NCBI GenBank assembly: GCA_026706385.1
Contig: JAPOYV010000086.1
Location: forward strand, 17,985-57,984
DNA: 40,000 bases
Source: Gammaproteobacteria bacterium
GTDB taxonomy: Bacteria > Pseudomonadota > Gammaproteobacteria > Pseudomonadales > Azotimanducaceae
Reading direction: 5' to 3'
The notes below the pieces were generated by a model that did not search any database, was not told the DNA's origin, and saw only the letters and a program-made list of their open reading frames with translations. The position numbers were made by a program, and so were the translations under genes. The stretch's first letter is position 1. Each line of letters starts with the position of its first letter. Below, one piece after another: positions 4,029 to 27,559 of this stretch.

Positions 4029-4086
4029 GCGCGTTCGATCGACGGAGCACGCGCGATCGACGGAGCACGCGCGATCGACGGATCGC
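4029..4086. repeat. Tandem 18-nt repeat (about 3 copies) in the divergent intergenic region
   Basis: Copies are gcgcg[ttcg]atcgacggagcac (4029-4050), gcgcgatcgacggagcac (4051-4068) and gcgcgatcgacggatcgc (4069-4086). A partial gcgcgat follows, and TACAAT (4101-4106) lies 25 nt before the ABC ATPase ATG. Confidence 0.85.
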
Positions 4087-4131
4087 GGGCGCGATTTGCG
4101 TACAATCGGTGTTGAACCGAGGCAATGCGCC

Positions 4132-6422: not shown

Positions 6423-6439
6423 CGGACTACCTACAACTG

Positions 6440-7651: not shown

Positions 7652-7658
7652 AGGCGAC

Positions 7659-9131: not shown

Positions 9132-9174
9132 GCGAAGACTCCGTTCCCATCCGACCCATCAGCGCAGTGTAAGC

Positions 9175-10716: not shown

Positions 10717-11180
10717 CAGCCATCTTCCAGGAGACGCCGCACCCGCTCGCTGTCCACCTCGCTCAACGCGGCGGGCGCGCCCCGCCGGGCCGCGCGCACC
10801 AGCAACCCCACGACGACGGCGAGCAGCAAGACGGGTGAGAACCAGAGCAGCCAGGTCGAAGCCTTGAGCGGCGGGTCGTAGAGCACGAAATCGCCGTAGC
10901 GCTTCTGCAGGTAGGCGCGGATGGCCGCGTCCGATTCACCTTCCTCCATCAGGCGGCGGACGGCACGGCGGAGGTCCACGGCAATGGGCGCGCCGGAACT
11001 GGCCAGCGACTCGTTGAGGCACTTCGGACAGCGGAACTCGGAGATCAGGCGTTGGTAGCGCGTGGCGGCCTCGGGATCCGGAAAGTCGAAGCTGTCGATC
11101 GCCGACGCCCCTAGGCAGGTCGCGAACGCCAACAGCAGCACCACGCGAATCGCACGCTCCATGGACACGCGCGCCTTCAC
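10716..11180 (-). CDS. ccmH: Cytochrome c-type biogenesis protein CcmH
   Basis: It has a signal peptide, an FRCPKC (RCxxC) motif, and a C-terminal TM (WLLWFSPVLLLAVVVGLLV). The GTG start overlaps the ccmG stop (GTGA); an alternative ATG lies at 11162. Confidence 0.85.
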   Translation of the reverse strand: MKARVSMERAIRVVLLLAFATCLGASAIDSFDFPDPEAATRYQRLISEFRCPKCLNESLASSGAPIAVDLRRAVRRLMEEGESDAAIRAYLQKRYGDFVLYDPPLKASTWLLWFSPVLLLAVVVGLLVRAARRGAPAALSEVDSERVRRLLEDG

Positions 11181-11701
11181 CGGATCGCCTCGATAGCCGG
11201 CGCGATTTCTTCACGCCAAATCGTCTCGTCGACCGCGCCGACATGCTTGTAGCGGATGACGGCGTCGGCATCCAACAGGAACGTCTCCGGCGCGCCGTAG
11301 ACCCCGAGGTCCACACCGAGATCGCCGTCGGTGTCCACCACGCTGAACGCGTACGGGTCGCCGTGACGAGCGAGCCACGCCACGGCGTCGGCCGAGTCGT
11401 CCTTGTAGTTGATACCCACGACGGACAGGCCGGTCTCGCGGATCCGCTTGAGTTCGTCGTGTTCGGCGAGACAGGTCGGGCACCAGGTCGCCCAGACGTT
11501 GACCAGGCGGACTTCGCCCTTGAGGTCGGCCTGCGTCGCGCGGCCGCTGCTGCCAAGTACCGGCAGGTCGAAGGGCGGAAACGGCTGATCGAGCAGTGCC
11601 GAAGGCAGCAAGTGCGGATCGCGCAAGCTGAAGCCGAGGTAGAGAACGACGGCGAGCGTCGCGAACCCCAGGAGCGGCCCAAACAGCCGAGCGCGGTTCA
11701 C
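11177..11701 (-). CDS. ccmG: Thiol:disulfide interchange protein CcmG/DsbE
   Basis: This is the C-terminal 175 codons of the artefactual 746-aa ORF. It has an N-terminal [10 protein letters not shown] (thioredoxin CxxC) and [10 protein letters not shown]. The GTG at 11701..11699 overlaps the ccmF TGA (GTGA). Confidence 0.85.
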
Positions 11702-13650
11702 GAAGTCGCTTGTGCCCCGGCAGCCGGAGCAGCCGGTGCCGCGGATGGCGGTGACGGGCGCGCGCGTCCCTCCAGGCGTCGATAGCGCCGATCGAGTACC
11801 GCGAGCACGCCCCCGGCCGCCATCAACAAGGCGCCGAGCCAAACCCAGCGAACCAGCGGCTTGTCGTTGATGCGCACGCCCCAGGCGCCGTCCGGGAGCG
11901 GCTCCCCCAGCGCGACATACAGGTCGCGGGTGAAGCCGGCCGCGATTCCCGCTTCCGTCATGACCTGCCCGCCTGCCGCGTAGCGCCGTTTCTCGGCGCG
12001 GAGCGTGACGCCGGTGTCGGTCACGAAAACGCCTTGGTCGGCGACATAGTTCGGTCCCTGCACCACGCGCAAGTCGCGGAACAGGTAGGTGACACCATTT
12101 AAGTCGGCGGATTCGCCCACGGCCAGCTTGACGTCCAACTCCTGGGAGAACTGGCTGGTGACACCGATCCCGACCATGCTGACGGCGAAGCCGAAATGGG
12201 CGAGGGCCATGCCCAGGTAGGCGCGCGTCCAAGCGCCGCGACGATGGCGCAGGTCGACGACCAGCACCGAGGCGATCCAGATGCCGGCCGCGACCGCAAC
12301 AAGCGCTCCGAGCTTGATCGTGCCGGTCAACGCCAGCGGCAGGAGCACTCCGAGCCCTAATGCGATCGCGAAGGCCACACCCGCCTGTGCGAAGAGCTTG
12401 AGCGGCGTTCGCTTCCACCGCGCGATCGGCGCCACCGCCAGCGCGGCGGCCAACACGAGCGCCAGCGGTACGAACGACGTGTTGAAGTACGGCGCCCCCA
12501 CCGACATCTTTTCGCCGCCGGTGATCGCCTCGTAGGCGAGCGGGTACAACGTCCCGATCAAGACCACGGCAAGCGCGAGGACCAGCAGCAGGTTGTTGGC
12601 GAGCAACATGAACTCGCGCGACAGACCCCCGTAGCGCGCCCAACTGCCGATGGTCGGCGCGCGCAGACCGTAGAGCGTCAGCGCCCCGCCGACCGCCAAT
12701 ACGAGGAGCCAGAGGATGAACAGGCCGCGCTCCGGATCGGCCGCGAAACTGTGCACCGAAGTGATGACTCCCGAGCGCACGATGAAGGCACCGAGTAGCG
12801 ACAGCGAAAACGCGGCGATGGCGAGGAACACGGTCCAGCTCTTGAACGCGCCCCGCTTCTCGGTGACGGCCAGCGAGTGCAGCAGCGCGGTGCCCGCCAA
12901 CCAGGGCATGAACGAGGCGTTTTCCACCGGATCCCAAAACCACCATCCGCCCCAGCCGAGCTCGTAGTACGCCCACCAGCTCCCGAGCGCGATACCCACG
13001 GTGAGGAATGCCCAGGCGACGTTGGTCCACGGGCGCGTCCACCGCGCCCAGGCCGCATCGAGGCGTCCGGAGGCCAGACCCGCCACGGCGAACGAAAACG
13101 CGACCGCGAAGCCGACATAGCCAACGTAGAGCAGTGGCGGGTGGACGATCAGGCCGAAGTCCTGCAGCAACGGGTTCAGGTCGGACCCTTCCACGGGCCC
13201 ACCCACCAGGCGCTCGAACGGTGAACTGGTCGCCAGCAGGAAGAGCAGGAAGCCCGCGTTCAGCAACCCCAGCGTGCCCAGGACGCGGCCGAGGATGTCG
13301 TCGGGCAGCCGGGTGCCACGGAGACCCACCGCCGCCGTCCATCCGGCCGTGACCAGCGTCCACAACAGGAACGAGCCTTCGTGGCCGCCCCAGGTCGCAC
13401 TGATGCGGTAGTACCAAGGCAACGCGGTGTTCGAGTTCTCCGCGACGTAGAGAACGGAGAAGTCACTGGTCACGAACGCATACACGAGTGCCGCGAAACC
13501 CAAGGCGATGGCGCCGAATTGCGCGCACGCGAGCGTCTCCGCGGTCCGCCGCCAGGCCCCGTCCCACGCCGTCCAATACCCGATGCCGGCAAGCGCCAAC
13601 GCCATCACGAACGCGACGACGGTGGCGAAGTGCCCAAGTTCGACGATCAC
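11698..13650 (-). CDS. ccmF: Cytochrome c heme lyase subunit CcmF
   Basis: [19 protein letters not shown] (WWD domain), multiple TMs and conserved His are present. Start chosen at GTG 13650 ([14 protein letters not shown], about 650 aa). The ORF-track start at 13728 lies inside the upstream terminator hairpin. Confidence 0.9.
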
Positions 13651-13705
13651 GGCGCGACTATAGCAAGGCGGTGCGCCGACGGCTGACCCGCGGGCGTCCC
13701 AGGCG

Positions 13706-13729
13706 GGTGCGGACGCGGACGTCCGCACC
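13706..13729 (-). terminator. GC-rich hairpin downstream of the S8 protease gene
   Basis: ggtgcggacg-cgga-cgtccgcacc forms a perfect 10-bp stem with a 4-nt loop, 26 nt after the stop at 13755. There is no U-tract, so function as an intrinsic terminator is uncertain. Confidence 0.45.
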
Positions 13730-13754
13730 GCAATTCACTACGCCAGACCGTGTC

Positions 13755-16700
13755 CTAGCGGCTCCCCGCGCGTTCGAAGATCATGATCCCGCGCGGCGCG
13801 GACGCATAGATGTGACGCCCGTCCGGCGTCGCCGCCAAGCCACGGTCGAAGCTGAAATACGGCAGATTGTTGTCGAACGCGTCGACGCCACCGGGATTCA
13901 GCAGTTCCTCTTGACGCAAGCTCGGGTCGCCGGGCATGAGTCGCCGAGCGAGCGCGAGGTCACGGCACAGGACGTCGACCGTCATCGTCCGCTGGCGGGT
14001 ATCGGCGAACGCGCACACCGGTTCGCCGAAGCCAATGAAGGAAGACCGGTCGTCTACGACGATGAAGGGATCGAACTCGGGCTCGACGCCCGCGCTCTGA
14101 GCGATCAGGGCTGGCGCCGTGGGATCGGCGAGGTCGAATGCGGCGACCCCGCGTTCCTCGGTCACCCCGAAGAGGTAGCGCCCAGACCGTTCAGCGAGCA
14201 GCAGCGTCAACGGCACGTCCATCGACGCGTGCGCGCTGATCGGCGCCAGTGCCCCGGTGGCCACATCCCGCAGAAAGACCTGCAGCGCCTGCTCGGTCGC
14301 CACGTAGAGGAACTCGTCCGTACCACCGAGCGCCGCCGCAGTAACGCCGAAGATCGGGACGCCGCCCACCAGTTCGACCGCGGTGCGCTCCTCGTTGAAG
14401 CGCAACGTCACGATGCCGAATGCGCCGACGAAGTGCACGAAGGTGCCGCTTGCGTCGCGCAAAACCGTCCCCGGCGGTAGCTCGCCGGCGATGCAGGGGA
14501 CGACGCCCGCGATTTCCATTCCCTCGTCAAGCCCGGCACCGGCTTCGTCCGTTGCGAACTTGCGAACGCCCGAGCAGGCGACGGCGATGACTGCCGAACC
14601 GTGCGTATCCCAGAACAGCACTGCGCTGTCGTCAACCCCGTCCAGGGTCTGCATGTGGCTCAGTGCGCCAGTGCCCGCGCGTCGCGAATAGACCTGCAGC
14701 CCGGATTCCGTTGCGACGTACAACTCGCTGCCGTCGTCGTTGAGCGCGATGCTGTCCGGCGATGCGAGATCGAGGATGCTGCCGCCCGGATCGAAATCGC
14801 CGTCCGCCACCGCCCCCGCATACTTGAGCCAGGTCGGCGACCCGTTCGGTGCCCAACTCAGCGCGAACTCACCGCCTCTCGCAGTCCCGTCCGTGCCCAC
14901 GCGAAGAGCGTAGCGCTCGCCGGCTTCTGCACGGAATATCAGGATGGGATCCGGCAAACGGCGGCTGACGGCAACGGGTTCGGGCGCCAAGGTGCCGTCC
15001 GAATGGATCTCGAACGCAGACACGACGCTGGCGCCAAACCGGTCCGCGAGCGCAACCCGGTACCACCGGGATTCCGGGACGTCCCAAGTCCACCACACCG
15101 ACGAGTCGCCGAGCAGCCCCACGGGCTCGCCAGCCGAGACCGTGGCGAAGAGATTCGAGCCGACGACCGTTCCGGAGACACCAGCCATGGCACCGGCCGA
15201 CGCCAGTTCGTCGTTGGACGGCGTCGGCCCCCACTCGAAGCTGATCGGCCCGGGGATCGTCGGGACGAAACCCTGGTCGATCGGCAACCCCGCCGAGATC
15301 AGGTACTGCCGACCGGCAACGGCGTCGAAGGAAACCAACTGCTCGGTCTGGCGGTCACCGGAACTCTCGCCCAAGGCGACAAGGCGGTCGCCGACCTCGA
15401 CGATCGACAGCGCCAACGTCTCGTCGAACAGCGCCGCGGCACGCCACGTGTAGCGGCTGGTGAGCGGTGCTCGCCATGTCCACCACGCCGTCCTGACGCC
15501 GCTTTCGATCGGCTCGCCCGGTTCGACCGTGGCCGATGACAGGTCCGCGAGTCCGAAATGGAAGAAGGCGGGCGCCCCGAACATGGGTTCCGCGTTGGCG
15601 ATGTCGTCGTTGGAGCCGAAATCGCGCTGCTCTGGACCCCACGTCAGGATGTAGTCGCTGCCGGAGGTGTACGCGCTGTGCGCCGCGACCGCGATGGTGT
15701 AGGCCTCCCCAGCACGCGCCGGGAAAACGGCCGCGTCGCCCGGCTCTCCCGAGACCAGCCGCAGTTGGTCCACCGCGTCGCCCGTGAACGCCGTCACGTT
15801 CAGGTGGCGGCGGTCGACGCGGAAGCCGTAGTCGCCGTCGGCGGGCGCCGTCCACCGGTGCCAAGTGCTCGCCGCCATGGGCTGCAGCCGTTCGCCGACT
15901 TGCTCGGTTGCGCTCAAGTTGCTGCCAGCATACTCGCCGCTCTCGCCGCCAAGCTCCGTGGCGAGTTCGAAGTTGTCGTTGGCCGGTAGCGACGCGCGCT
16001 GCCAATGCAGCGACAACGGCACCACCGGGCGGCGGCGGATCGGACCCTCGCCGGCCGCGCCGTATTCGAACAACTGCGCTCGCGTCACAGCGAGCCGGAC
16101 GGCGTAGGTCTGACCGCGGCGCGCGGCGAACGTCAGTCCGCCACCGAACTTCGCCGCGATGTGCTCGAGGTCCGACATGCCGAGCCCGTGCGCTTCGAAG
16201 ACGTCCAACTGGATGTCGTCGCCGATGCCCTCGCCCGAGCCGGGAATGGCAAAGCGGACCAAGTCGGTCGTGGGCGCCTTCCAGCGATACCACAGCGAAC
16301 GTGGGCGGCGCTGACTCTGGTACCGGCCATAGTCGTCCAGCAAGCCTTGCGTGAACGCCGGTTCGCCGGGCTCGGGCGTGGCCAGGATCAGATCGAAGTC
16401 GAGGCTTCCTGCATCGCCGGCCAACTCCGTGGCCGCGGCGAAGTGGTCGTTAGCCGGCGGTGTGGTGGCAGGAGTGGCCGGGACGTCGGATGAGCCGATC
16501 GCGACGTCGACCGATGCCGAGGCCGAGGTCGCATTCCAGGCCGAGGCGGTGAGGAAGAGGCGGAACCGCGCGGCCGACGGCAACTGCTTGAATACCAGCT
16601 TGACGGTCTGTTGCTCGCCCACCGCGACCTCGCCGAGCGCAATGGCGTCGCCGGATTCGCCCGCCAAGGTCCGGTTCACGGCATCTTCGCGCAAAGCACC

Positions 16701-19172
16701 GCTCGCCTTGGGCGCTAGCAACTCGACCCGCTCGCAGATCTCGGCATCGCCGCGGCAGTCCACGCGCAGCATGGTCCCAGCCGCAACGTAGCCGTCGGTG
16801 GTCACCGTGGCTTCGACCTCGAAGGGCTTACCCGGCTCCGCCGCGACGGCGGCGTTCGTGCCGACGGCGAGTAGTGGCGTAGAAGGCCCGCGGATCACCG
16901 TCCAAGCCAACGCGGCACGCGGCGTGTCGGTGCGCGCGTACTTCGGTACCACCTTGAGCCGGTACGTGCCCGGCAGGGGATCGCGGAGAATCAGCCACTC
17001 GACGTTGTCCTTGGTCGACCGGGACGCGGCGTTGCCGCACGCGGCCGGCTGCGACGGCGCGCAATCCGCGTCGCGATCGACCCAAAGGTCGAGGTCGTTG
17101 ACCACCGTCGAGGCCAACGTGTCGGCCGGCTGCTCGTCCCACGTCATCACGATGTCCAGTCGGCTGGCTCCTGCCGGAACCTCGATGTCGCGGTAGCCGT
17201 ACTCGTCGTCCCCGACCTCGATGACCGCGGCGCCGCCGAACCAGCCGTCGGCCTCGTCGCGATTCAACACGCTGGTGCGTGCCGAGACCTTGCCGAGACC
17301 ATAGCGGTGCTGCAGCGGTCCGGGGCCATCGCTATTGTGCAGCGGGAACTGGGTCACATCGTCCAGGAACGCATCCGGGCGGATCGCGCTGGCCATCAGC
17401 CTGGCACGCACCGCGGCCGGCTGTTCGCGGTATTCCGGCGCCGCATCCATCAACAGCGCGGCCACGCCGGCAACCGCGGGCGACGACATGCTGGTGCCGT
17501 TGAACCGCACGTAGCCCGACCGCCTGCCTTCGCCGCGGGGCGAGTCGATGCTCACACCCGTCCCCACCACCTGCGGCTTCAGGCGGCCATCCGCAGTTGG
17601 GCCATGGCTGCTGAAACTGGCGAGATCGCCGCCGTCCTCGACGGCACCGACGGCGAGCGAGTTCTTGGCGCTCGCGTAGTCGCTGTACGAGATGAAGCCG
17701 CCATTGGACTGCGATACGACGTAGAGCTGGCGGTTGTTCCAGACAGTCGCGTCGAGCTTGCGCTCGGTCGCGCTCTTGCCGTCCCACTCGGGGAAGTTCC
17801 GGCTCAAGCTCATGTTGACCACGAGCGGGCGAACGGCAGGCGTCGTGGCCGGGCCGCAGGTGCTCTGCTCCGCCATGAAGTCCATGCCCCGCATGATGCC
17901 GACCAGCGAACCGGTACCAAACGTGGTCAACACCTTGGCGAAGCGGATGTCCTGGACCAGCGGGGCCACACCGGCGTGTTGCGGTCCCCCGGTCCCGTTG
18001 CCGGCCAGCGTGCCCGTCACGTGGGTACCGTGCAGACCGGCATCGACCCACAGATCCTGATCCTCCTCACGGTCAAAGAAGGAGAAAAAGGTGGCGAAAT
18101 TCGCCCCGCAGATGCTTCGTCGGCCCGTGCCGATGTCCTCGTGGCGGATGTTCAGACCCGAATCCATCACCCCGATCGGCACCGATCCGCCGCCGATCCC
18201 GGAGAAGAGGCCCGTGCCGCTTTCGTACGTCCGCAAGGCATCCGCGCCCATGGCCGGCACCGCCGAGGCGTGACTCGCCTTGACCAGACCGACCGGCTCG
18301 ACGGCGAGCACGAAGTCGGCGGCCGCAACAGTGTCGAGAACGGCCACCGGAAAGTTGGCGGGATAGACGCGGATACTCGGGTCGAAGCGGCCCACCACGC
18401 CCCCCAAGTCGGTCAACGCCTGTCGGAAACGTCCGTCGGGATCGTCGTCCATCAAGGTGACGAACGTCGGCACCAGGCCATCCACGGCCCGGAAGCCCGC
18501 ATTCTGGTCGCTTGGCTCGAAGAGCTTGGCCGGGAGCGGCGTCGGGCCTAAGCCAGCGACGCCCGGAATCGCAGCGATCTCTTCGAGGCGCGCGATGTCG
18601 CCCGGCAAACGCGTCCGCAGCAGGGTCCCCGATGCACCGAGGACCTCTGCGCCCGCCGCGCTCAAGCGCCCGATCAACGCGGCCCGGTCGGTATCGGCGT
18701 TGATGGCAACCCAGCCGAAGGTCCAATCGCGGCCTGCCGCCATGGCTTGGCCGGCTAGACCGCGCGCGCCGGTCCCGGTGTCCAGCCAGGGTTGATCGGC
18801 AATGGGATCCGGGGGCGGGGCGACATCGAGTGGCGTCATTCGCGCGGTGGACATCTCGCCGTGGAACGCGGTGAACTCGAAGCCGTCGGGTGGGTTCGAT
18901 TCCACGCTCGAATGAGCACCCGGAACAAAACCAGGCGGCGCTTCAACCGGTTCGATTGCGTCGCGAGAGGCAACGTCGCCCGTGCTCTCTGCCGCGATTT
19001 GCGCGACGGCGGCCGCAGTAGCCTCAAGCGCGACGTCAGCGGTCTCCGCCGGTTCACGGTCATCGGTATCGGGACTCGAGCCCGGCGCCGTCGTGGTCAC
19101 CCACCACGCCGCGACAAGCGCCACGACGCCGATCGAACCAATGCCGCACGCGACCTTTGACGCCTTGTTCAT
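13755..19172 (-). CDS. Giant secreted subtilisin-like serine protease (peptidase S8) with 4 tandem NDxF/WxWxAP modules and a C-terminal beta-propeller
   Basis: Start MNKASKVACGIGSIGVVALVAAWWV (ATG 19172) has AAGGAG 7 nt upstream. Catalytic triad motifs are GVMDSGLN (Asp), HGTHVTGTLAG (His) and NGTSMSSPAVAGVAALL (Ser). Four modules of 123-157 aa follow, then lactonase-like propeller blades (DGSELYVATESGLQVYS, DEFLYVATEQALQVFL, DGRHIYASAPRGIMIFE). Confidence 0.9.
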   Translation of the reverse strand: MNKASKVACGIGSIGVVALVAAWWVTTTAPGSSPDTDDREPAETADVALEATAAAVAQIAAESTGDVASRDAIEPVEAPPGFVPGAHSSVESNPPDGFEFTAFHGEMSTARMTPLDVAPPPDPIADQPWLDTGTGARGLAGQAMAAGRDWTFGWVAINADTDRAALIGRLSAAGAEVLGASGTLLRTRLPGDIARLEEIAAIPGVAGLGPTPLPAKLFEPSDQNAGFRAVDGLVPTFVTLMDDDPDGRFRQALTDLGGVVGRFDPSIRVYPANFPVAVLDTVAAADFVLAVEPVGLVKASHASAVPAMGADALRTYESGTGLFSGIGGGSVPIGVMDSGLNIRHEDIGTGRRSICGANFATFFSFFDREEDQDLWVDAGLHGTHVTGTLAGNGTGGPQHAGVAPLVQDIRFAKVLTTFGTGSLVGIMRGMDFMAEQSTCGPATTPAVRPLVVNMSLSRNFPEWDGKSATERKLDATVWNNRQLYVVSQSNGGFISYSDYASAKNSLAVGAVEDGGDLASFSSHGPTADGRLKPQVVGTGVSIDSPRGEGRRSGYVRFNGTSMSSPAVAGVAALLMDAAPEYREQPAAVRARLMASAIRPDAFLDDVTQFPLHNSDGPGPLQHRYGLGKVSARTSVLNRDEADGWFGGAAVIEVGDDEYGYRDIEVPAGASRLDIVMTWDEQPADTLASTVVNDLDLWVDRDADCAPSQPAACGNAASRSTKDNVEWLILRDPLPGTYRLKVVPKYARTDTPRAALAWTVIRGPSTPLLAVGTNAAVAAEPGKPFEVEATVTTDGYVAAGTMLRVDCRGDAEICERVELLAPKASGALREDAVNRTLAGESGDAIALGEVAVGEQQTVKLVFKQLPSAARFRLFLTASAWNATSASASVDVAIGSSDVPATPATTPPANDHFAAATELAGDAGSLDFDLILATPEPGEPAFTQGLLDDYGRYQSQRRPRSLWYRWKAPTTDLVRFAIPGSGEGIGDDIQLDVFEAHGLGMSDLEHIAAKFGGGLTFAARRGQTYAVRLAVTRAQLFEYGAAGEGPIRRRPVVPLSLHWQRASLPANDNFELATELGGESGEYAGSNLSATEQVGERLQPMAASTWHRWTAPADGDYGFRVDRRHLNVTAFTGDAVDQLRLVSGEPGDAAVFPARAGEAYTIAVAAHSAYTSGSDYILTWGPEQRDFGSNDDIANAEPMFGAPAFFHFGLADLSSATVEPGEPIESGVRTAWWTWRAPLTSRYTWRAAALFDETLALSIVEVGDRLVALGESSGDRQTEQLVSFDAVAGRQYLISAGLPIDQGFVPTIPGPISFEWGPTPSNDELASAGAMAGVSGTVVGSNLFATVSAGEPVGLLGDSSVWWTWDVPESRWYRVALADRFGASVVSAFEIHSDGTLAPEPVAVSRRLPDPILIFRAEAGERYALRVGTDGTARGGEFALSWAPNGSPTWLKYAGAVADGDFDPGGSILDLASPDSIALNDDGSELYVATESGLQVYSRRAGTGALSHMQTLDGVDDSAVLFWDTHGSAVIAVACSGVRKFATDEAGAGLDEGMEIAGVVPCIAGELPPGTVLRDASGTFVHFVGAFGIVTLRFNEERTAVELVGGVPIFGVTAAALGGTDEFLYVATEQALQVFLRDVATGALAPISAHASMDVPLTLLLAERSGRYLFGVTEERGVAAFDLADPTAPALIAQSAGVEPEFDPFIVVDDRSSFIGFGEPVCAFADTRQRTMTVDVLCRDLALARRLMPGDPSLRQEELLNPGGVDAFDNNLPYFSFDRGLAATPDGRHIYASAPRGIMIFERAGSR

Positions 19173-19283
19173 CGAGCAACTCCTTGCGGACTGTGTGGAC
19201 GGACCTATCGAACGCGGATGTGGAGAGGAGTACTTGCTTGTCCTAGCCATTCGATAAGACAAAAAAGTTAATTTAAACAAGCA

Positions 19284-19289
19284 ATTATA
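19284..19289 (-). promoter_or_regulatory. Perfect TATAAT (-10) on the minus strand inside an AT-rich tract upstream of the S8 protease gene
   Basis: Plus-strand attata (19284-19289) is TATAAT on the minus strand. It lies about 110 nt upstream of ATG 19172 within aaaaaagttaatttaaacaagcaattatag. The best -35 candidate, TGAACA (19314..19309), has a 19-nt spacer and lies inside the inverted-repeat region. Confidence 0.35.
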
Positions 19290-19296
19290 GTTCGTT

Positions 19297-19309
19297 CCGC
19301 TAATCCGCT
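19297..19309. repeat. Inverted repeat, left core
   Basis: ccgctaatccgct is a CCGCT pentamer doublet and the exact reverse complement of 20627-20639. Confidence 0.9.
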
Positions 19310-19332
19310 GTTCAGGAAACTATCACGGCCTT

Positions 19333-20436
19333 TCAGGCCCGCGCAAGCGCTTTTTGCGCTTTTTTGTCGGCTCTTCTGTCAGCCTTTCTCGCGCGTTTCG
19401 CGTCCTTGCGCCGGCGCTTCCATTCCCGTCTCGTGACGCCCGACTCGCACAGTAGCGCCGACATCGTCGCGCGGCGGCGCAGCGACAGCGAAACCGCGCC
19501 GTATCGCAGGCAAGCGACCGCCCCGCTCGCGGCGTCCTGCTCGCGCGTGTAGCGCGCCACCGTGTCAGCCCGCGTCCAGCGTCCCGCCGCCATCAGGTCC
19601 ACGATCGTCGCGCCGGCAGCACGCAACGACTGCGCGGCCCCCACCCGCAGCGAGTGTCCGGACACGCGCCCGCCGATCCCTGCGTTCTCGGCGCACCGTT
19701 TGACGATGCTCCGCACGCTACGCACTGTCAGCCGCGTGTCGGCAGCGCGCCCGGCCTTGTTCACCGGGCGGAACAGGGGCCCGTCCGTGATGTCCGCCAC
19801 CTTCAGCCATCGACGTGCCAGCCGCGCCGTCTCCTCGCCGGCGTAGAACACGACGCCCCGTCCCTCCTGGTCCGTCTTGCTGCGCCGCACGTACACGCGC
19901 AGCCAGCCGTCGGCGAAGGCGATGTCCGACACGTCGAGGGCCACGGCCTCGGCCCCGCGCAGCAGACAGTCCGACATGATCCGGACCAGCAGCGCGTCGC
20001 GCAGACCGCCCGTGCCGCGTTGTTCCGCCAGTTCCGCCATGCGGTCCGCCTGCTCCCAGGAAATGCCCTCGACCTGCCCGAGCCCGCGGCCCGCCCCGGC
20101 GCGCCGGTAGCCGCACAGCGTCTGCCGCGTCCGCTCGCCCGCCGGACATGCGACGCCCGTCCGTCTGGCCCGGTCCTTCAGGGCCGCGACGACGGCCTCT
20201 GCGGAGGCGGCTGCGAGACCCCTGTCGAACAACACGCCGAGGTAGTTTGCCAGCGCCGTGTCGGTCTCGCGCTCGCTCCCGCGCCAGTCGTCGAATGCCC
20301 GCGCGGCGCGGTCGTAGGCATCGCGCGTGCTCTGCTCAAGTGCCTTTTCGGCGAGGTACGTCGCCGTGTCGTGGGCGTTGCTGTCGATGGTGTAGCTGCT
20401 GTCTGCGGGCCACTCGGCCCCGACGAAATCCGCCAT
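19333..20436 (-). CDS. Tyrosine site-specific recombinase (Cre/XerD-like) with a Lys/Arg-rich C-terminal tail
   Basis: Start MADFVGAEW (ATG 20436) has AAGGA 5-6 nt upstream. Catalytic boxes are LLRGAEAVAL (Arg), GHSLRVGAAQ (HxxR) and GRWTRADTVARYTRE (Tyr), which resemble Cre GHSARVGAA...W...NY. The tail reads TRREWKRRRKDAKRARKADRRADKKAQKALARA. Confidence 0.85.
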   Translation of the reverse strand: MADFVGAEWPADSSYTIDSNAHDTATYLAEKALEQSTRDAYDRAARAFDDWRGSERETDTALANYLGVLFDRGLAAASAEAVVAALKDRARRTGVACPAGERTRQTLCGYRRAGAGRGLGQVEGISWEQADRMAELAEQRGTGGLRDALLVRIMSDCLLRGAEAVALDVSDIAFADGWLRVYVRRSKTDQEGRGVVFYAGEETARLARRWLKVADITDGPLFRPVNKAGRAADTRLTVRSVRSIVKRCAENAGIGGRVSGHSLRVGAAQSLRAAGATIVDLMAAGRWTRADTVARYTREQDAASGAVACLRYGAVSLSLRRRATMSALLCESGVTRREWKRRRKDAKRARKADRRADKKAQKALARA

Positions 20437-20626
20437 GTCGTTCCTTCTCGTTCGTTTGTACCACCGATGCACGGGTCGCCTTGGCCGAACGGCAGGCCGG
20501 ATTCCGGCCATCGGCATTGTGCGTACGTATTCGCACGTATCCGAACGGAATGCAACGGGCGGCTGCGCTGCCGGGGGCTCGTCGCCGGGCCGGCCGCCCG
20601 TCTCCTAGTCGGATTGGTTCCCCTGA

Positions 20627-20639
20627 AGCGGATTAGCGG
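20627..20639. repeat. Inverted repeat, right core
   Basis: agcggattagcgg is the exact reverse complement of 19297-19309. Confidence 0.9.
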
Positions 20640-20787
20640 GAGCTACAGCTCCGACACCGTCGAGGTTGGAGTCAATGCCGCTTTCTTGGGCACTGGCGTA
20701 GCTGCGCGCGACGCAAACCGGTCGGTTCGAACCGGCCCTAACGGTACGGAAGCGGCCACCCAAACAGGTCGCAAAAGGAGAAATGAC

Positions 20788-21279
20788 ATGCGAGAGCGCA
20801 ACCGAGGACGAATACGCTTGGCAGCGGGGTTCGTTTACATGGCGGTATTCGGGCTTTTCGGATCACCATCTGCCCCGTTAGTGGGCGGCATTGCGACGGT
20901 TGGACAGGACGCCGCCGCAGACGAACGTCCGACCATGTATGGCGACCCGTATTGCGAGCTTTTGCCCGATGGCTGCTATGACTACTACCAGGACAGTGAT
21001 GGTGATGGCTTCCGGGACGAGCAGGATGGCTGCCCCTTCGAGTACGGGACGAACGGGGGTTGCCCGAATCCACCCTCCAACCCGCAAGACGACTGTACCT
21101 CCGCTGCGAACATGTGGATGGCCGGCGGAACTGCGGTAGCGGGCGCGGGTGCGATGTCCTTGATGGCTCCTACGACGACCGCAGGCGACGGGCTGGCCGG
21201 TCTCGCTGCAGTAGGTGTAGGAACGGCGGCGGCCACGGCTGGGGCGCTGACTTACTTCGCGTGCATTATCATATTCTAG
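20788..21279 (+). CDS. Small secreted/membrane-anchored Cys-rich protein with a thrombospondin type-3-like Ca-binding repeat and a Gly/Ala-zipper C-terminus
   Basis: AAGGAG lies 7 nt upstream of ATG 20788. The protein has an N-terminal signal/anchor (RIRLAAGFVYMAVFGLFG) and DSDGDGFRDEQDGCP, which fits DxDxDGxxDxxDxCP. It has six Cys and ends in the hydrophobic tail AGGTAVAGAGAMSLMAP...AGLAAVGVGTAAATAGALTYFACIIIF. Confidence 0.6.
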   Translation: MRERNRGRIRLAAGFVYMAVFGLFGSPSAPLVGGIATVGQDAAADERPTMYGDPYCELLPDGCYDYYQDSDGDGFRDEQDGCPFEYGTNGGCPNPPSNPQDDCTSAANMWMAGGTAVAGAGAMSLMAPTTTAGDGLAGLAAVGVGTAAATAGALTYFACIIIF

Positions 21280-21280
21280 T

Positions 21281-21484
21281 GTGGAAAACGGGAGTTGGCT
21301 GGTGACAGGCGCACTGTTGGCTACGTCCATCTTGTTCGCCGCGGGCGTTAGCGTTTATGCCGCCCAGCGGTGGCTGTCAGCACATCGGCCCGAGCGGAAA
21401 CGCACGTTCTGGTGGGCATTCTCGGTCGGGGCCGCGGGTTCCGCCATCGGACTGAGTGCGCTCATAGCCTACATGGTCACGTAG
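21281..21484 (+). CDS. Two-TM miniprotein (67 aa)
   Basis: A GTG start lies 1 nt after the preceding TAG. The two hydrophobic helices are LVTGALLATSILFAAGVSVYA and FWWAFSVGAAGSAIGLSALIAYMV. The exact start is uncertain. Confidence 0.4.
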   Translation: MENGSWLVTGALLATSILFAAGVSVYAAQRWLSAHRPERKRTFWWAFSVGAAGSAIGLSALIAYMVT

Positions 21485-21714
21485 GCATCTCGGCGGTTGT
21501 TCCTCGCCGGTCTGGGTAGAGCCGCGCACGCCGGGCACAGAGAATCGCTGTCGGACGAGATGGCGGGGTGCCTCTCTGGAAACTCGTGCGCGGCTCAACA
21601 ACGGTCGTGCCGAGGACACTAGGCAGTGTCAATCCGTTTCTGACAGTCGAGGTTGGCGACCGTGGCGAGCCGCCGGCGTCCACCCAAACGCGTCGCCGAC
21701 GGAGTCTGGTCCGG

Positions 21715-24700
21715 ATGCATGGTGCGCTTCGAGGCTGGTTAGCTATTGGAAAGGCCGAACTCCGGTCGTCGGGCCGGTTGACCCGGACTTGGCTGTTTGT
21801 GCTGGCTGGTGTCGCCGCCGGGTTTCTGGGCCATGTTGGTCTAACGGTCTTTCACGCATTCTCGTCCGGTCAGTCTCCATCTCTTGGCCTGCTCCGGCCG
21901 CGATTCGTGAGCGGTGAAGGCGGGACGTTCCTACTAAGACTGTTCGTTGTTGCCCTGGTCTTTCTCGCATTCGACGTCCGCGTGCGGGATCAAAGGGCTC
22001 GGATAGTCGACGCCATAGACTCTCGACCCTTCGGCAATCTGGCTCTCTTAACCGGGCGATGTGCCGCCCTCGTACTTTTGGCGTGGCTGCCGATGGCGCT
22101 TCTGGTTTGCCTGTGCGAGATGTTCGGTGTCGCGGCTGAGCACCTTGGTCTGCCGTTCGGTGAACGCCTAGACTTTGACTCAACAGCGGCGTTGCTCCTG
22201 GTCGACGCGCCGGCCATGCTCATGATTTGGTGCGCGCTGGTTTTCTTGCTCTCGGTTGCGCTCCAAAACAGAGCGGTAGCTGCGACCGCTGCCTTGGCCT
22301 TACTTGCTGCCCATTGGTGGGCGCTGTCGGTGCTACCTAGCCATCTTTTGGTCGCGTTCTCTGGGACAGTGGGGTCAACGGCGATGCCGTCTGACATGGT
22401 ACCGGCCTCTGCTACCGCGCGTGATCTGACGCAGCGCTTGGGCCAACTAGTGCTCGCTGTTGGATTCCTGATCGTCGCAGCCGTTTGCCATCCGCGTCCC
22501 GACGACGTGTCCCCGGGTCGTCGGTTGGTCGTGGGTTCCACCCTAGTGGCGACCGGCGCTACGATCATCGGCCTTTTGGCCTGGCTAGCCACCGAGGATC
22601 TGGCAAGACGCGAAAGTTGGCGTAGCGTCCACGAAAGACGGACTGGCGAGCCGCTGCCGGATGTCGAGCGAGTAGAAGGCCGAGTGTTGGTGGATCCAGG
22701 TGTACGTCTCGGACTCGATCTGCGCTACCAACTGCGGGCGAAAGACCAGCCCTTGACCGAGTTGGTAATGACTTTCAATCCCTCGATGCGAGTGGTCGGC
22801 CTTACAGTTGATGGTCAAGTTGCGCAGTACTCACACAGGTCGGGTGCCTTGGACGTGGAACTACAGGAGACTCTCAGGCCAGGAGATGGTCTAACATTGG
22901 GGTTACGCGCGGAGGGAGTCCCGGCCCCGGACTTTGGCTATCTGGATAGCCCAATCGACGTGGCGCGTCTCCCGGGAACGTCAAGTCGCCTGAGACTGTT
23001 GGGCAGCCGGGTTGGAGTGTTCACTGACGAATACGTCGCGCTCATGCCCGGAATGCATTGGCTGCCGACGGTCGGCGCCGCGGTACCCGTGGATGGTCGA
23101 AACACCCGCGGCCCAGACTTTTTCGTCCTAGACCTCGAGGTGCGGACGCCCAAGGAGTGGCGCGTTGCCGGTCCTGGTCGCCGCGAGGGCACAGCAGGCC
23201 GTTTTCGATTCCGGCCCCAGGCGCCGTTGTCGGCGGTGGCGTTGCTGGCGGCACAGTTTGAGCGTCGGACAACAGACATCCAAGGAGTAGAGCTGGAACT
23301 CTTGAGCCTGGCGAACCAGAGACGCAACATCCTGTTGTTCGCCGACGCTTTCGCCAGCTTGCGCGACTACGCAGAGCGTGTCCTGCGGGAGGCGAACTCG
23401 CACGGTCTCCCCTTTCCGTACGGCGGCTTGAGCATCGTGACCGTGCCCGCGGAACTGCGAGCTTTCGGTGGGGGGTGGCGAATGGCCTCTGTGCAGTCGC
23501 TGCCAGGAATCCTTCTGCTACGCGAATACGGCTTTCCATCGTCCCGGTTCGAGATGCTGTTTGCCAACCATGATCGTCCATCTGGCGACACTCGGTCACA
23601 AGCAGTCAAAACAGCAGCTTTGAAACGATATTTCAGCAATGACATCTCCGGCGGAAACCTCCATGCGGGGGCAATGCGCAACCTGTTCTCGTTCCAAACG
23701 CGTGCCGTTGGGGAAGGTGCCTTGGCGTTGAGTTTCGTGCTGGATGAGCTTGTACAAAGAATGCTCACAGCGTCGGGCGATAGTTATTACTCGCCGTTCG
23801 CGCTGGCCGAGAGCGGGAGTTCTATCTTGGCCCGCGCATTCGCCGACGCGTCCGGTGCTGGCGGTGCGGTCGCCTCGAATGCTAAGGCGACCGCGATTGG
23901 CCGCACTGCCGTGTGGGAACGAGCACGTGAGACGCCATTGGCCTCACTCGACCCGACCGTTGATCCGCAAACCGTTCTGGACGTCCTCTGGCTCAAGGGC
24001 CCGACCTTGGCTCAGTCCATTCTGGACGCATGTGGCGACGAAGTCGTTGGTCGCACACTGGCTCAGTTACTCAACCGTTACCGGGGACGGACGTTCACGG
24101 TAGAGGACTTCTTATCCGTCGCATCTGAACAAGGCATGGACTTGGAGTCAGCCGTTGGCGACTGGTTGCACCAGACGGGCTTGCCCGGATTCAGCGCGTC
24201 AGTGCCGTCGGTTGCGCGTATCCGCGACCGTGTAGACGGATCGCCCCAGTTTCAGTCACGCATTCACGTTCGGAACGCCGAACGAACGCCTGGGGTCATA
24301 CGGCTGCGGGCCCTCGTGCACGGGTCTGAGGGGAGCCGGACGGTCTCCCGGTGGACGGATCCCAAGCTGGTCGGTGGGGGAGATTCAGTAGAGATTGGAC
24401 TGGTGACCGCGCGGCCGCCCGAGGAACTGTGGCTGCACCCAGTCCTCTCGCTCAATCGCAGGCCATTCAGGGTGCATACGCCCCGCGCTCGCGTATACGT
24501 ACACTCTTCCGACAGGCCATTTCGGGGCTCGCGACCAAGCGATTGGGTGCCGCCGGCAATGCCGGGAGTGGTAGTCGACGATTTGGACAGTGGATTCGCG
24601 ATAGTAGATGTGAGCCTGCGCCGACGGCGGCTCGGCGAAACGCTCAGGCCCAACTCCCTGGAGGGCGAACCAGTGACTCGTTTTCCTGCCTACTGGGAAC

Positions 24701-25101
24701 TCGTGGACAACCAGTCGGCCTGGTTGCGCCGCGAGTCACCGGATGCCTACGGTGTGTACCGTCGCACAACGGTCGTCTCGCAGATGGCAAACGGCAAGGC
24801 GATGGCCGTATTCTCAGCCTCACTCCCGCACGAAGGTCGATGGCGGCTAGCCTACTACTTGCCCCTGTCGGGTATGACGAGCAATCGTCGTGACCGTCTT
24901 GGCTTGTACGACATGCGCGTTACTGCAGATGGATTGGATGTGCCCGTTGAGTTCGACGCCGGAGCGGGGTCGGCGGGCTGGAACGACCTTGGTACCTTCG
25001 ACCTTGAGGCTGGCAACGTGCAACTGTTGGTCTCTGATCAGTCAACGGGTAGCGTCGTCTTGGCCGACGCGATTCGGTGGACCCCTGAGAGGGCGGAGTA
25101 G
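21715..25101 (+). CDS. Polytopic membrane (ABC-2 permease-like) / M1 aminopeptidase-like (HExxH-less) / golvesin-C-like fusion protein, 1128 aa
   Basis: Start chosen at MHGALRGWLAIGKAELRSS (ATG 21715; an upstream GTG at 21568 is possible). Seven to eight TM helices come first. An M1 N-domain-like segment follows (VERVEGRVLVDPGVRLGLDLRYQL...ELVMTFNPSMRVVGLTVDG). A catalytic-domain-like core ends in FTVEDFLSVASEQGMDLESAVGDWLHQTGLPGF. The C-terminus reads GWNDLGTFDLEAGNVQLLVSDQSTGSVVLADAIRW. There is no HExxH anywhere in the protein. Confidence 0.6.
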   Translation: MHGALRGWLAIGKAELRSSGRLTRTWLFVLAGVAAGFLGHVGLTVFHAFSSGQSPSLGLLRPRFVSGEGGTFLLRLFVVALVFLAFDVRVRDQRARIVDAIDSRPFGNLALLTGRCAALVLLAWLPMALLVCLCEMFGVAAEHLGLPFGERLDFDSTAALLLVDAPAMLMIWCALVFLLSVALQNRAVAATAALALLAAHWWALSVLPSHLLVAFSGTVGSTAMPSDMVPASATARDLTQRLGQLVLAVGFLIVAAVCHPRPDDVSPGRRLVVGSTLVATGATIIGLLAWLATEDLARRESWRSVHERRTGEPLPDVERVEGRVLVDPGVRLGLDLRYQLRAKDQPLTELVMTFNPSMRVVGLTVDGQVAQYSHRSGALDVELQETLRPGDGLTLGLRAEGVPAPDFGYLDSPIDVARLPGTSSRLRLLGSRVGVFTDEYVALMPGMHWLPTVGAAVPVDGRNTRGPDFFVLDLEVRTPKEWRVAGPGRREGTAGRFRFRPQAPLSAVALLAAQFERRTTDIQGVELELLSLANQRRNILLFADAFASLRDYAERVLREANSHGLPFPYGGLSIVTVPAELRAFGGGWRMASVQSLPGILLLREYGFPSSRFEMLFANHDRPSGDTRSQAVKTAALKRYFSNDISGGNLHAGAMRNLFSFQTRAVGEGALALSFVLDELVQRMLTASGDSYYSPFALAESGSSILARAFADASGAGGAVASNAKATAIGRTAVWERARETPLASLDPTVDPQTVLDVLWLKGPTLAQSILDACGDEVVGRTLAQLLNRYRGRTFTVEDFLSVASEQGMDLESAVGDWLHQTGLPGFSASVPSVARIRDRVDGSPQFQSRIHVRNAERTPGVIRLRALVHGSEGSRTVSRWTDPKLVGGGDSVEIGLVTARPPEELWLHPVLSLNRRPFRVHTPRARVYVHSSDRPFRGSRPSDWVPPAMPGVVVDDLDSGFAIVDVSLRRRRLGETLRPNSLEGEPVTRFPAYWELVDNQSAWLRRESPDAYGVYRRTTVVSQMANGKAMAVFSASLPHEGRWRLAYYLPLSGMTSNRRDRLGLYDMRVTADGLDVPVEFDAGAGSAGWNDLGTFDLEAGNVQLLVSDQSTGSVVLADAIRWTPERAE

Positions 25102-25284
25102 CAGCCAAGTCAACGGGGACCGCCCCGCGCTTCCTCGGGACACGCGTCCTTGGCGCCTAGGACACCTCGCACGCCACATTCCGGATGACCGCGGCAACGC
25201 GGGGCCGATGTCGCACGGCAATCCGAGACATCGGCCAAGTGACACCGCCCGGTCGGACCACGACGATGCCCATGACCACCCCGA

Positions 25285-25560
25285 GACGACTGCCTCGTCG
25301 ACCCCGTCAACGCCTGCGACTACCACCTGGTGTCACGATGCGTGCAGGGCGCCTTTCTGTGCGCGCGACCCGCGCACCGGACGCGACCGCTCGCACCGCA
25401 GACAGTGGCTGGTGGACCACATCGAGCTGCTGAGATGCTGCTTCGCCGTCGAGGTCTACACCTACTGCATCATGAGCAACCACTTCCACCTAGTCGGCCG
25501 CCATGCCGGTGCCACGGTGGCCCGCCGACGTTGTCAATAGGCAGTCTCTGCGCCCCGACT
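25285..25560 (+). pseudogene. IS200-like / Y1 (COG1943-type) transposase, frameshifted 5' fragment
   Basis: Frame 1 reads DDCLVDPVNACDYHLVSRCVQGAFLCAR. Frame 2 continues DPRTGRDRSHRRQWLVDHIELLRCCFAVEVYTYCIMSNHFHLV (the YxxMxNHxHLV hallmark). The frameshift is in the gcgcgcg run 25361-25367. The gene is truncated after about 90 codons by a stop at 25538 and a further shift. Confidence 0.7.
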
Positions 25561-25883
25561 AGCATGCCGCCCCGGCTCAACCCCTGCCTTCCAGACACGC
25601 AGAATCGTGGTTGTGGACTCCTTGGGAGGTTTCCCGTCAAAGGCGAACGCGTTTACAACCAACGCTTCACGCTGAATGAGTTCGCGAGAGGCAAGGCTGG
25701 CTGGTACGTCTACGCCGCCATGGCGATGGCTGCGTGCGGTCTGCTATTCGCGTGTCTGGCGATGGTCGGCTGATAATCCCGAGCGCGCGCGACCCGGGAG
25801 TTCGGTCCGTTCCGATTGAGGTTCCCGGACACGCGACTCCGGCACGAACCGACCCAAAGGTCACGCACTTGCGCGGGGGACGG

Positions 25884-26645: not shown

Positions 26646-27128
26646 TTGGTTGATGAACCCTCCCCACAAGCTTCCCCAACCGGGAAACTGCAATCCATCC
26701 GTACGTACCGGTCAGCACTGGGGCGGCGTGCCCTGTGGCGTTGCCTGCCATTCCTTTTGGTTGGCTTCGCGATGTCGGTGTTGCTGCTTCGCAACGCTGG
26801 CTTCGCCCTCATGGCAATCCAGATCGGCCTAGTCGCGCTGGCAGTCGCCATGCCATTGTGGTTGGTCTTCGGTACCTCCTACCGCGTCAGTGGCAGCACA
26901 TTGACGGTGACGATGGCCTTCAGGCGGGAGCGCATCCCGCTGGCCGAAATCACCGACATCAGACCGTCGTCGCAGAGGTCGATCTGGGCATGGCAACCCG
27001 GGGTCGACGATTTCGCATTGGGCACGCAGGTAGTCGAGATAGACTGGCGAGGCCGCTTGGTATTGGTTTCACCCGTTCGCCAGGGCGATTTCCTGGTGGC
27101 AATAGACACTCGGAACTCGGTCGGATAG
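26646..27128 (+). CDS. Bacterial PH-domain (bPH/YdbS-like) membrane protein
   Basis: The start is TTG. Two TM helices (LWRCLPFLLVGFAMSVLLL, ALMAIQIGLVALAVAMPLWLVF) are followed by YRVSGSTLTVTMAFRRERIPLAEITDIRP...VVEIDWRGRLVLVSPVRQGDFLVAI, the typical bPH topology. The start codon is uncertain. Confidence 0.55.
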   Translation: MVDEPSPQASPTGKLQSIRTYRSALGRRALWRCLPFLLVGFAMSVLLLRNAGFALMAIQIGLVALAVAMPLWLVFGTSYRVSGSTLTVTMAFRRERIPLAEITDIRPSSQRSIWAWQPGVDDFALGTQVVEIDWRGRLVLVSPVRQGDFLVAIDTRNSVG

Positions 27129-27438
27129 CTCGTCAACCCCGAGAACGCCTGCGACTACCACTTGGTGTCGCCATGCGTGCAGGGCTTGCCTTCTTCTGCG
27201 GCCGCGACCGCCGCCCTAGGCGCGGCCCACGCCGAGCTCGCTGAGCGCGCTCATGAAGCACCTCAAGCAGCCGATCGCGCGGCGCGGCGCCCAGTTCGCT
27301 GCTCAGTACGACCCTGGGAGTTCGCGGTTGCGTTGGCGTTTTGGGTACGCTGATGGCCAGCAACATGCCCCGCCGAGTAGAGGGAGGATCGAGGCTACGC
27401 AAAGGGTGCACACGCGTTCCACGTCCTACAGCGCCTAG
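27129..27438 (+). pseudogene. Second, internally deleted IS200-like/Y1 transposase remnant
   Basis: LVNPENACDYHLVSPCVQG (27129-) shares about 85% nucleotide identity over about 80 nt with 25292-25370. It then jumps to MKHLKQPIARRG and a WE..RF-like block and ends at the same ...gcc tag context as 25153-25160. A partial tandem duplicate of the cctgggagtt...ggcgttttgggta block lies at 27476-27525. Confidence 0.6.
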
Positions 27439-27559
27439 GACACCTCGCACGACGCGTCGCGTCGACGTTGTCGCTCCCTGGGAGTTGGCTCTCAAGTTGG
27501 CGTTTTAGGTATGCTGGTCTGCAACGCTCCGTATCGCGCCGAACAGGGAAGTACTAGGC

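Follow-up and report, generated by a model that had tools for sequence, protein, structure and literature searches.

Do three genes that stand side by side form one system, or do they only share an address? The question is raised by a 40,000-nt stretch of high-GC DNA (the window in what follows) from a gammaproteobacterial assembly (GenBank GCA_026706385.1, contig JAPOYV010000086.1, positions 17,985 to 57,984), in which three co-oriented open reading frames (ORFs) on the plus strand, here g1, g2 and g3, follow a divergent tyrosine recombinase gene (Table 1). The original prediction, made from the letters of the DNA, took the three for an unannotatable cassette and compared it, with low certainty, to a toxin, immunity and export locus. 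Our analysis leads elsewhere. What we find is not the self-contained novel system that was suspected, but a recombinase-associated variable locus together with a member of a large uncharacterised family of pseudo-peptidase ABC (ATP-binding cassette) proteins. On balance we consider it probable that g1, g2 and g3 constitute one cargo block made of two modules: a pair, g1 and g2, that is typical of the recombinase platform, and an orphan, g3, that would need an ATPase supplied in trans.

The limits of the cargo block

That the genes lie on a discrete piece of cargo is borne out by a sister genome, which also sets the limits of the block at 20640 and 25142. A relative of g1 (P0204) is encoded on L096, a TARA contig in synteny with the window. 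Its genes run in the order CcmF, S8 protease, integrase, g1 homolog, bacterial PH-domain (bPH) gene, RayT-like Y1 transposase, S9 peptidase, and g2 and g3 are absent from this locus. The S8 protease, the integrase and the bPH protein are 90%, 87% and 94% identical between the two at the amino acid level, the g1 homologs just 41%. With blastn, the homology runs at 88.5% from 13753 to 20639, then ceases, and resumes at 25143, which is 42 nt past the g3 stop codon. The variable block thus measures 4.5 kb in the window against 0.75 kb in L096, and its left break falls at the end of a 28-nt site that is repeated on the other side of the integrase gene.

The composition of the block also differs from that of its neighbours. 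The G+C content of third codon positions (GC3) is 0.66 for both g1 and g3, against 0.83-0.85 for the integrase and the S8 gene, so the cargo block is compositionally foreign. Because the whole island has a low GC3, this measure is uninformative as a coding test for g1 and g2. We believe that 20640-25142 was acquired horizontally, as cargo in a variable locus beside a conserved tyrosine recombinase.

On the right, the block ends in debris. A REP-like (repetitive extragenic palindromic) 21-mer at 25153-25173 recurs identically at 27431-27451, and two partial, rearranged copies of a RayT-like Y1 transposase gene, each of its 5' end, lie at 25143-25600 and 27129-27451; within the latter stretch, the second partial copies occupy 27129-27185 and 27431-27451. 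L096 has one intact Y1 transposase of 330 aa (Pfam Y1_Tnp, 27.8 bits).

The three genes are real, in the sense that their coordinates, the ribosome-binding site (RBS) of g1 and the start of g3 as judged from homolog alignment are all confirmed. Since g1 and g3 both have conserved families, they are more than chance ORFs. The case for g2 as a gene consists of its position and its hydrophobicity only.

The trio is not a conserved unit

If the three genes worked as a conserved unit, as was suggested, one would expect to meet them together elsewhere, and a neighbourhood survey speaks against this. No match to g1 or g2 lies near g3 homologs at 90 other loci, save for a partial g1-like ORF at locus L009, and the full trio is confined to this genome. 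A strict scan for ORFs with a signal peptide and a Gly/Ala tail 5' of 71 g3-family operon heads returned the window alone. Moreover, at both L096 and L097 the same integrase has g1-family genes next to it but no g3. The independence of the two modules would follow from this pattern, but there are observations that pull in the other direction; we return to these once the components have been described.

g3, a predicted permease with a dead peptidase domain

The description of g3 as a permease fused to a pseudo-peptidase proved correct, since the M1 aminopeptidase fold is present and the zinc motif is absent. The term "unannotatable", on the other hand, has to be dropped for this protein, to which a fold can be assigned with confidence and a Pfam domain as well. 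An AlphaFold2 (AF2) model of g3, built on a 29-sequence alignment, has a predicted local distance difference test score (pLDDT) of 86.7 and a predicted template modelling score (pTM) of 0.85. When this model is compared with PDB by Foldseek, M1 enzymes make up the whole of the top 50 (E 8e-18 to about 2e-15), the best being IRAP (5mj6, E 8e-18), followed by ERAP1, PepN, tricorn F3 and Deinococcus 6a8z. A sequence profile reached 6a8z as well (5e-4) and, weakly, the C-terminus of the Paenibacillus xanthan lyase 6f2p; a single-sequence search of PDB with g3 returned nothing, and profile and fold searches alone worked.

The motif HExxH is absent from g3 and from 96 of 96 full-length homologs (32-51% identity), and so the peptidase domain must, judging by its motifs, be catalytically dead throughout the family. 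The position of GAMEN (GxMEN), which was aligned by eye from flanking conserved residues, reads GGGWRM in the family, with Arg in place of Glu. Most homologs also carry the C-terminal Golvesin_C domain of g3.

The N-terminal ~300 residues are predicted to form an amphipathic helix and about seven transmembrane (TM) helices of the ABC-2, NosY-like type. Counts of Lys and Arg in this domain favour an N-in, C-out arrangement, so that the 820-aa ectodomain would lie on the periplasmic side; an arginine-rich stalk after TM7 leaves some doubt. The Pfam match of g3 itself to ABC2_membrane_3 is weak (11.1 bits against a cut-off of 31.6). Its membership of the ABC-2 class is argued for by the labels of its homologs, which have precomputed matches to PF12698, PF12679, PF12730 or PF13346 and a NosY-type label from the Joint Genome Institute (JGI), and by gene context.

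As to the family, the g3 product is identical to an NCBI protein from a gammaproteobacterial metagenome-assembled genome (MAG), locus tag OXH15_14140, and is encoded on a contig of 157 kb. Its start is supported by alignment with 28 homologs, in which the first methionine is nearly invariant, and in the 29-sequence family alignment g3 keeps 50 of 50 invariant columns and most of the nearly invariant ones. The placed homologs all come from MAGs of Gammaproteobacteria (Pseudomonadales, Azotimanducaceae, many bins), Acidobacteriota (Vicinamibacterales, Thermoanaerobaculia, Holophagales) and Desulfobacterota; judging by sample labels, many of these bins look like products of sponge-microbiome studies. 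At least 100 copies of the gene are present in some 60 species-level MAGs, and as many as five may stand in tandem. A scan of JGI metagenomes with g3 gave no confirmed relatives, and no plasmid relative was found. We know of no member that has been characterised experimentally.

Two further observations concern family organisation. Genes of the g3 type, ~1130 aa long, stand head to tail in three to five copies at L034, L048, L057, L058, L060, L074 and L005; and a sponge-type gammaproteobacterial MAG may contain several separate g3-family loci, sometimes with a single ATPase gene inside an array.

The missing ATPase

It had been pointed out that no ABC ATPase gene sits next to g3, and that the nearest, placed at 4132, belongs to a MacB-type unit. 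Both points stand. The only ABC ATPase of the window is the ORF at 4027-4911, part of a unit of ATPase, HlyD and MacB_PCD/FtsX genes at 4.0-7.65 kb. What does not stand is the notion that this absence is a special feature of the locus. We surveyed the upstream context of 101 g3-family gene copies with enough flanking sequence, in about 80 loci. The gene directly 5' of the copy is an ABC_tran gene in 31 of 101 cases, its stop codon often overlapping the start of the copy, and a paralog in 30; the remaining 40 follow neither. The lack of an adjacent ATPase is so common in the family that it cannot be called peculiar to this locus, and copies without an ATPase are often intact. Even within the subclade of g3 itself the upstream gene varies: it encodes an ATPase for P0003, a divergent Rce1-like protein for P0002 and a small ORF for P0004.

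Small cysteine-rich ORFs with a signal peptide were also seen directly 5' of ATPase-less g3-family genes at L075 (5544-5933, 129 aa, 14 Cys), L022 (5314-5949, 211 aa, 9 Cys) and L041 (1927-2301, 124 aa, 4 Cys). These ORFs are unrelated, and their placement may be a coincidence.

How might such proteins work? In the canonical loci, the adjacent ABC ATPase would power the g3-type protein. The dead peptidase and the beta-sandwich would together serve as a ligand-binding head, for a peptide or a glycan, and not as an enzyme, and ATP-driven rearrangements of the membrane domain would move or gate this head. The g3 of the window would then use an ATPase encoded elsewhere, as apparently ~40% of the family do, or it would be idle.

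g1 and g2

The gene g1 has an AAAGGAG Shine-Dalgarno sequence 7 nt 5' of its ATG. The N-terminus of its product is basic and then hydrophobic (Sec-type), six cysteines lie at residues 56, 63, 82, 92, 103 and 159, and residues 105-163 form a hydrophobic Gly/Ala tail. In between, at residues 69-83 (20992-21036), is a thrombospondin type-3-like (TSP3-like) loop, DSDGDGFRDEQDGCP, present in a single copy, which scores 15.7 bits with Pfam TSP_3 (PF02412), below the cut-off of 25. By the AF2 model (pLDDT 52.6; helices 4-25, 99-126 and 134-162), the protein would begin with a helix, pass through a disordered middle part and end in a helical hairpin; the confidence of the model was too low for a fold search.

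A word-indexed protein search with g1 and g2 returned only the queries themselves. For g1, an exhaustive HMMER (phmmer) search of 1.84 billion representatives gave 185 matches, 150 of them listed. Most of the matches listed span only residues 62-100 (best E 5e-17), and the three best of this kind, which were tested (P0099-P0101), are true TSP_3 array proteins. Among the matches listed there are, however, at least five near end-to-end relatives of g1 (P0140, P0142, P0147, P0190 and P0204), with lengths of 136-185 aa, identities of about 32-41% and E values of 1e-6 to 6e-5; a sixth, P0249, comes from the 90% cluster of P0140. All share a basic N-terminus followed by an invariant L..G.PSAP (consensus LFGxPSAP) in the hydrophobic part, one DxDGDGxxDxxDxCP loop each (TSP_3 15.7-19.7 bits against the same cut-off), the conserved Cys92 and Cys103, and a Gly/Ala/Ser-rich hydrophobic tail with a Cys near its end. 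Nor, then, is g1 unannotatable, as the protein belongs to a family. A scan of JGI metagenomes with the g1-family alignment gave no confirmed relatives. It seems reasonable to picture g1 as a protein anchored by its hydrophobic termini and displaying, probably in the periplasm, a Cys-rich loop with one TSP3-like calcium-binding motif.

Less can be said about g2, for which the searches made found no homolog. Its GTG start has no RBS, and an alternative in-frame GTG at 21302, with GGGAG at 7-nt spacing, would give a 60-aa version, which is how the gene is called on another assembly; the start codon is therefore uncertain. Tiny hydrophobic ORFs overlap or abut the stop codons of g1-family genes at L092/L093 (50 aa), L095 (46 aa) and L097 also, and in L097 a 75-aa two-TM ORF follows a different Cys-rich secreted protein as well. 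We regard g2 as a putative tiny TM protein that would be linked to g1 by tight or translational coupling, and the two together as the kind of gene pair that would be normal for this recombinase site.

The recombinase and its sites

By its NCBIfam matches the recombinase is Xer-like and not an integron integrase, the score with integron-integrase TIGR02249 being 11.8 bits against a cut-off of 265. The 28-nt site, TTCCNCTGAAGCGGATTNGCGGAA, has the core TTCC.TGAA.AGCGGATT.GCGGAAC, and an inverted pair of such sites brackets the integrase in five lineages (the window, L096, L092, L097 and L067). The right site is the sole forward copy in the window, where none is expected by chance, and the site is absent from viral contigs. 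A hairpin reading of the site was considered and given up, since strong folding is found in the L097 copies alone (z -4.5 and -3.2) and not in those of the window or L096; we therefore treat the site as conserved in sequence.

The integrase has the same orientation in all five assemblies, with no flipped example among them, and neither inversion nor cassette capture is demonstrated for this segment. It is co-directional with the giant S8 gene, at a distance of 52 nt, so that an inversion could redirect S8 transcription towards the cargo. The S8 gene itself stands beside the integrase in four lineages, with some 300 aa of its product assigned to a known domain; apart from L096, it is found in L092 (56% amino acid identity) and L097. 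At L092 (1156-1737) only the N-terminal ~170 aa of the integrase homolog are left, next to both sites and a g1 homolog, which suggests that the platform can decay.

L092 and L097 repeat the order S8, integrase, site and small protein genes. L097 comes from a complete genome of 5.4 Mb, in which 14.6 kb (4270-18888) separate the integrase from the S9 peptidase. Within this array there are more forward sites, each 110-150 nt 5' of genes for small secreted or membrane proteins, one of which is P0249, and a unit consists of a site, ~170 nt of integrase-proximal sequence and small secreted/TM genes. Between the units lie nine or ten REP-like repeats (GTAGGA...CTCGCACG); the array also contains RayT-like Y1 transposase genes, some whole and some in fragments, along with an internal N-terminal fragment of the integrase and, near its distal end, a VapBC pair. 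The window corresponds to one unit of this structure: a site, g1-g2-g3, the REP-like repeat at 25153 and the Y1 fragment at 25294-25504.

Alternative explanations

We have to consider what weighs against separating g3 from g1 and g2. At L009 a 164-aa g1-like ORF lies 245 nt 5' of the g3 homolog P0004, which is 46% identical to g3. It aligns with g1 at 49% over the leader (residues 8-44, E 5e-7) and at 37% over 73 aa, and its Cys spacing is similar; it has neither the TSP3 loop nor the tail, and no integrase is found in the 840 nt available upstream. At L067 an integrase 54% identical to that of the window, with the same sites, is followed by small secreted and TM ORFs, an ABC ATPase and a g3 homolog; the small ORFs include one of 67 aa with a signal peptide, one of 77 aa with a signal peptide and a Gly/Ala tail, and further TM ORFs. 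Since both families are rare, two or three such meetings look like more than chance, and L009 and L067 taken together suggest that g3-type genes come upon the platform, or upon g1-like genes, at a rate above the random one. In the window, g1 and g3 also share a 29-nt leader motif. Finally, the topology and the ligand-binding role that we assign to g3 are themselves putative. The meetings are still compatible with g3-type genes being frequent cargo in genomes rich in their paralogs.

Taken at face value, these observations would point to a functional unit, a joint cassette in which a g3-type permease recognises, extracts, exports or presents g1-type proteins and g2 acts as an accessory or assembly factor. 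L009 would supply the pair in the same layout, and L067 a comparable set of integrase, sites, small ORFs, ATPase and g3 homolog; the boundaries of the block enclose exactly g1, g2 and g3, and the leader motif is common to g1 and g3. The M1 fold, moreover, is built to hold peptide termini, and a dead copy of it could be a peptide receptor. Against this, an Arg stands in the position of the GAMEN Glu, the residue to which the N-terminus of a substrate binds; g1-family genes without g3 are present in L096 and in the 14.6-kb array of L097; ~95 other g3 loci have nothing g1-like; and a profile comparison detected no homology between the small ORFs of L067 or L097 c3 and the g1 family. In our opinion a joint cassette is possible, yet unlikely.

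A bolder version of the same idea, which we find rather doubtful, would make the Xer-like recombinase and its sites an undescribed, integron-like cassette-exchange platform, its units bounded by REP and RayT elements, with g3 as a dedicated handler of g1-type proteins.

One could also argue that the block is mostly the debris of a recombination hot spot, that transfer deprived g3 of its ATPase and left it without function, and that g2 does not represent a gene. The neighbourhood is indeed full of rearranged RayT-like gene fragments and REP-like repeats, no homolog of g2 was found and its start is ambiguous, the GC3 departs from what is typical of the host, and the integrase is truncated in L092. 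On the other side, g3 is an intact ORF of 1128 aa with every one of the invariant family columns in place, and g1 has its strong RBS and the conserved motifs of its family, while family copies without an ATPase are common and often intact. We think it improbable that the block is debris.

Least convincing of all, and in our view very improbable, is the toxin reading, in which g1 would be secreted as a bacteriocin-like toxin, g2 would confer immunity and g3 would be the machine for processing and export: a small Cys/Gly-rich protein is followed by a tiny TM protein, a pairing that recurs at other copies of the platform, and g1 diverges fast in comparison with its flanks (41% against 87-94% amino acid identity), but the Sec-type N-terminus and hydrophobic tail of g1 point to a membrane-resident protein without a double-glycine leader, g3 lacks a C39 peptidase, a nucleotide-binding domain and catalytic residues, no PADLOC or other family match exists, and g3 is absent where g1 homologs occur.

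Comparison with known systems

We return to the two-module reading and ask which described systems its parts resemble. With the M1 aminopeptidases (PepN, IRAP/ERAP1, 6a8z) g3 shares the N-terminal beta, thermolysin-like and helical domains over about 640 Foldseek columns. It differs in that its module sits behind a polytopic membrane domain and has extra beta-sandwich domains after it, and in that the g3 family is without HExxH-x18-E and GAMEN, which makes g3 a pseudo-enzyme and not a peptidase. The likeness to ABC-2 permeases (ABC2_membrane_2/3/4/5; NosY of NosDFY) consists of the homologs' labels and of the copies that follow an ABC_tran gene (31/101); on the other side are the sub-threshold score of g3, an extra seventh TM helix, the 820-aa ectodomain and the lack of an adjacent ATPase. 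MacB, LolCDE and FtsEX offer a functional analogy, in that cytoplasmic ATP hydrolysis would power work by a periplasmic domain and not transport across the membrane. Their membrane fold is different (FtsX/MacB_PCD against ABC-2 for g3), and the MacB unit of the window is unrelated to g3.

Bacterial TSP_3 proteins, with their OmpA/PorP-linked arrays, have the calcium-binding loop DxDxDGxxDxxDxCP in common with g1, whereas the g1 family has a single sub-threshold copy between two hydrophobic anchors and no tandem array.

Integrons likewise combine a tyrosine recombinase, divergent from variable and mostly small cargo, with a repeated palindromic site at the junction, and the likeness extends to the L097 sites before successive cargo units and to the VapBC pair in that array. 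Here, however, the recombinase is not IntI, the repeated site and some 170 nt of integrase-proximal sequence lie together 5' of the genes, and REP-like repeats and RayT-like genes stand between the units. Invertible segments of the Hin/Fim type are flanked by inverted repeats, as is the integrase here; both orientations are not observed, the five assemblies being alike. As for class II bacteriocin loci, g1 has no double-glycine leader and g3 has no C39 peptidase or fused nucleotide-binding domain, and the three-gene co-occurrence expected of such a locus is not found beyond partial pairs at L009 and, by analogy, L067.

Other features of the locus

The order of the locus is S8 protease, integrase, 28-nt site, cargo (g1-g2-g3), REP/RayT debris, bPH gene and S9 peptidase (Table 1). 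The leader motif shared by g1 and g3 in the window is RBS-proximal, with the consensus GCG.CCACCCAAAC..GTCGC....GGAG, and may be a shared regulatory or translation-control element. A second repeated pair lies near the two leaders (20656-20680 and 21643-21667). A similar motif, GGCC.CCAAGA, is present 5' of the g1 homologs in L092 and L097.

An Rfam scan of 19-29 kb (E<=1) gave no match, so that the 230-nt gap between g2 and g3 contains neither a riboswitch nor another known RNA. There is no tRNA gene in the window, hence no tRNA attachment site, and scans for sigma-70 promoter and terminator consensus sequences performed no better than shuffles. PADLOC found no defence-system match, and NCBIfam no meaningful match to g1, g2 or g3.

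Table 1. Coordinates of the main features of the locus within the window
Feature	Coordinates	Strand	Evidence or remarks
S8 subtilase gene, giant (1805-1841 aa)	13755..19280	-	Pfam Peptidase_S8, 4.3e-37; left neighbour of integrase
28-nt site, left copy	19293..19320	-	Inverted repeat I2; between integrase stop and S8 start
Tyrosine recombinase (integrase)	19333..20517	-	Pfam Phage_integrase, 1.3e-18; divergent from g1
28-nt site, right copy	20616..20643	+	Inverted relative to left copy
Leader/RBS-proximal motif GCGGCCACCCAAACAGGTCGCAAAAGGAG, 5' of g1	20752..20780	+	Direct repeats D4, D5 and alignment
g1, 163 aa	20788..21279	+	Small, predicted membrane-anchored Cys-rich protein; one TSP3-like loop, Gly/Ala-rich tail
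g2, 67 aa, two hydrophobic segments	21281..21484	+	ORF; GTG 1 nt past g1 stop
Leader motif, second copy, 79% identical	21676..21704	+	Directly 5' of g3 start
g3, 1128 aa	21715..25101	+	230-nt gap after g2
g3 membrane domain, aa 1-305	21715..22630	+	Hydropathy, charge distribution, AF2 helices
g3 M1-aminopeptidase-like module, aa ~310-830	22642..24204	+	Foldseek against PDB; profile against PDB
g3 Golvesin_C beta-sandwich, aa 999-1122	24709..25080	+	Pfam PF25275, 36.1 bits against cut-off 31.6
Cargo right edge: REP-like repeat 25153-25173 and RayT-like Y1 transposase 5' fragment 25294-25504	25143..25504	+	Repeats D1, D7; sister-genome homology
bPH_4 (bacterial PH-domain) gene	26646-27128		94% identical to L096 counterpart; between two Y1 fragments

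Implications

A practical consequence concerns annotation: g3 should not be named an aminopeptidase. Its family is unstudied and found only in uncultured bacteria, and the combination of an ABC membrane domain with a peptidase fold that has no catalytic site makes it a candidate for a new periplasmic ligand-handling ABC machine. If the locus should be an exchange platform after all, the genes passed around by it, among Gammaproteobacteria that are marine and probably associated with sponges, would be those for small surface or membrane proteins and for ABC pseudo-peptidase machines. Irrespective of that, loci with identical flanks and different cargo provide a natural comparison of gene exchange between symbiont genomes, one that covers g3-type genes as well as the rare family of small membrane proteins with a calcium loop.

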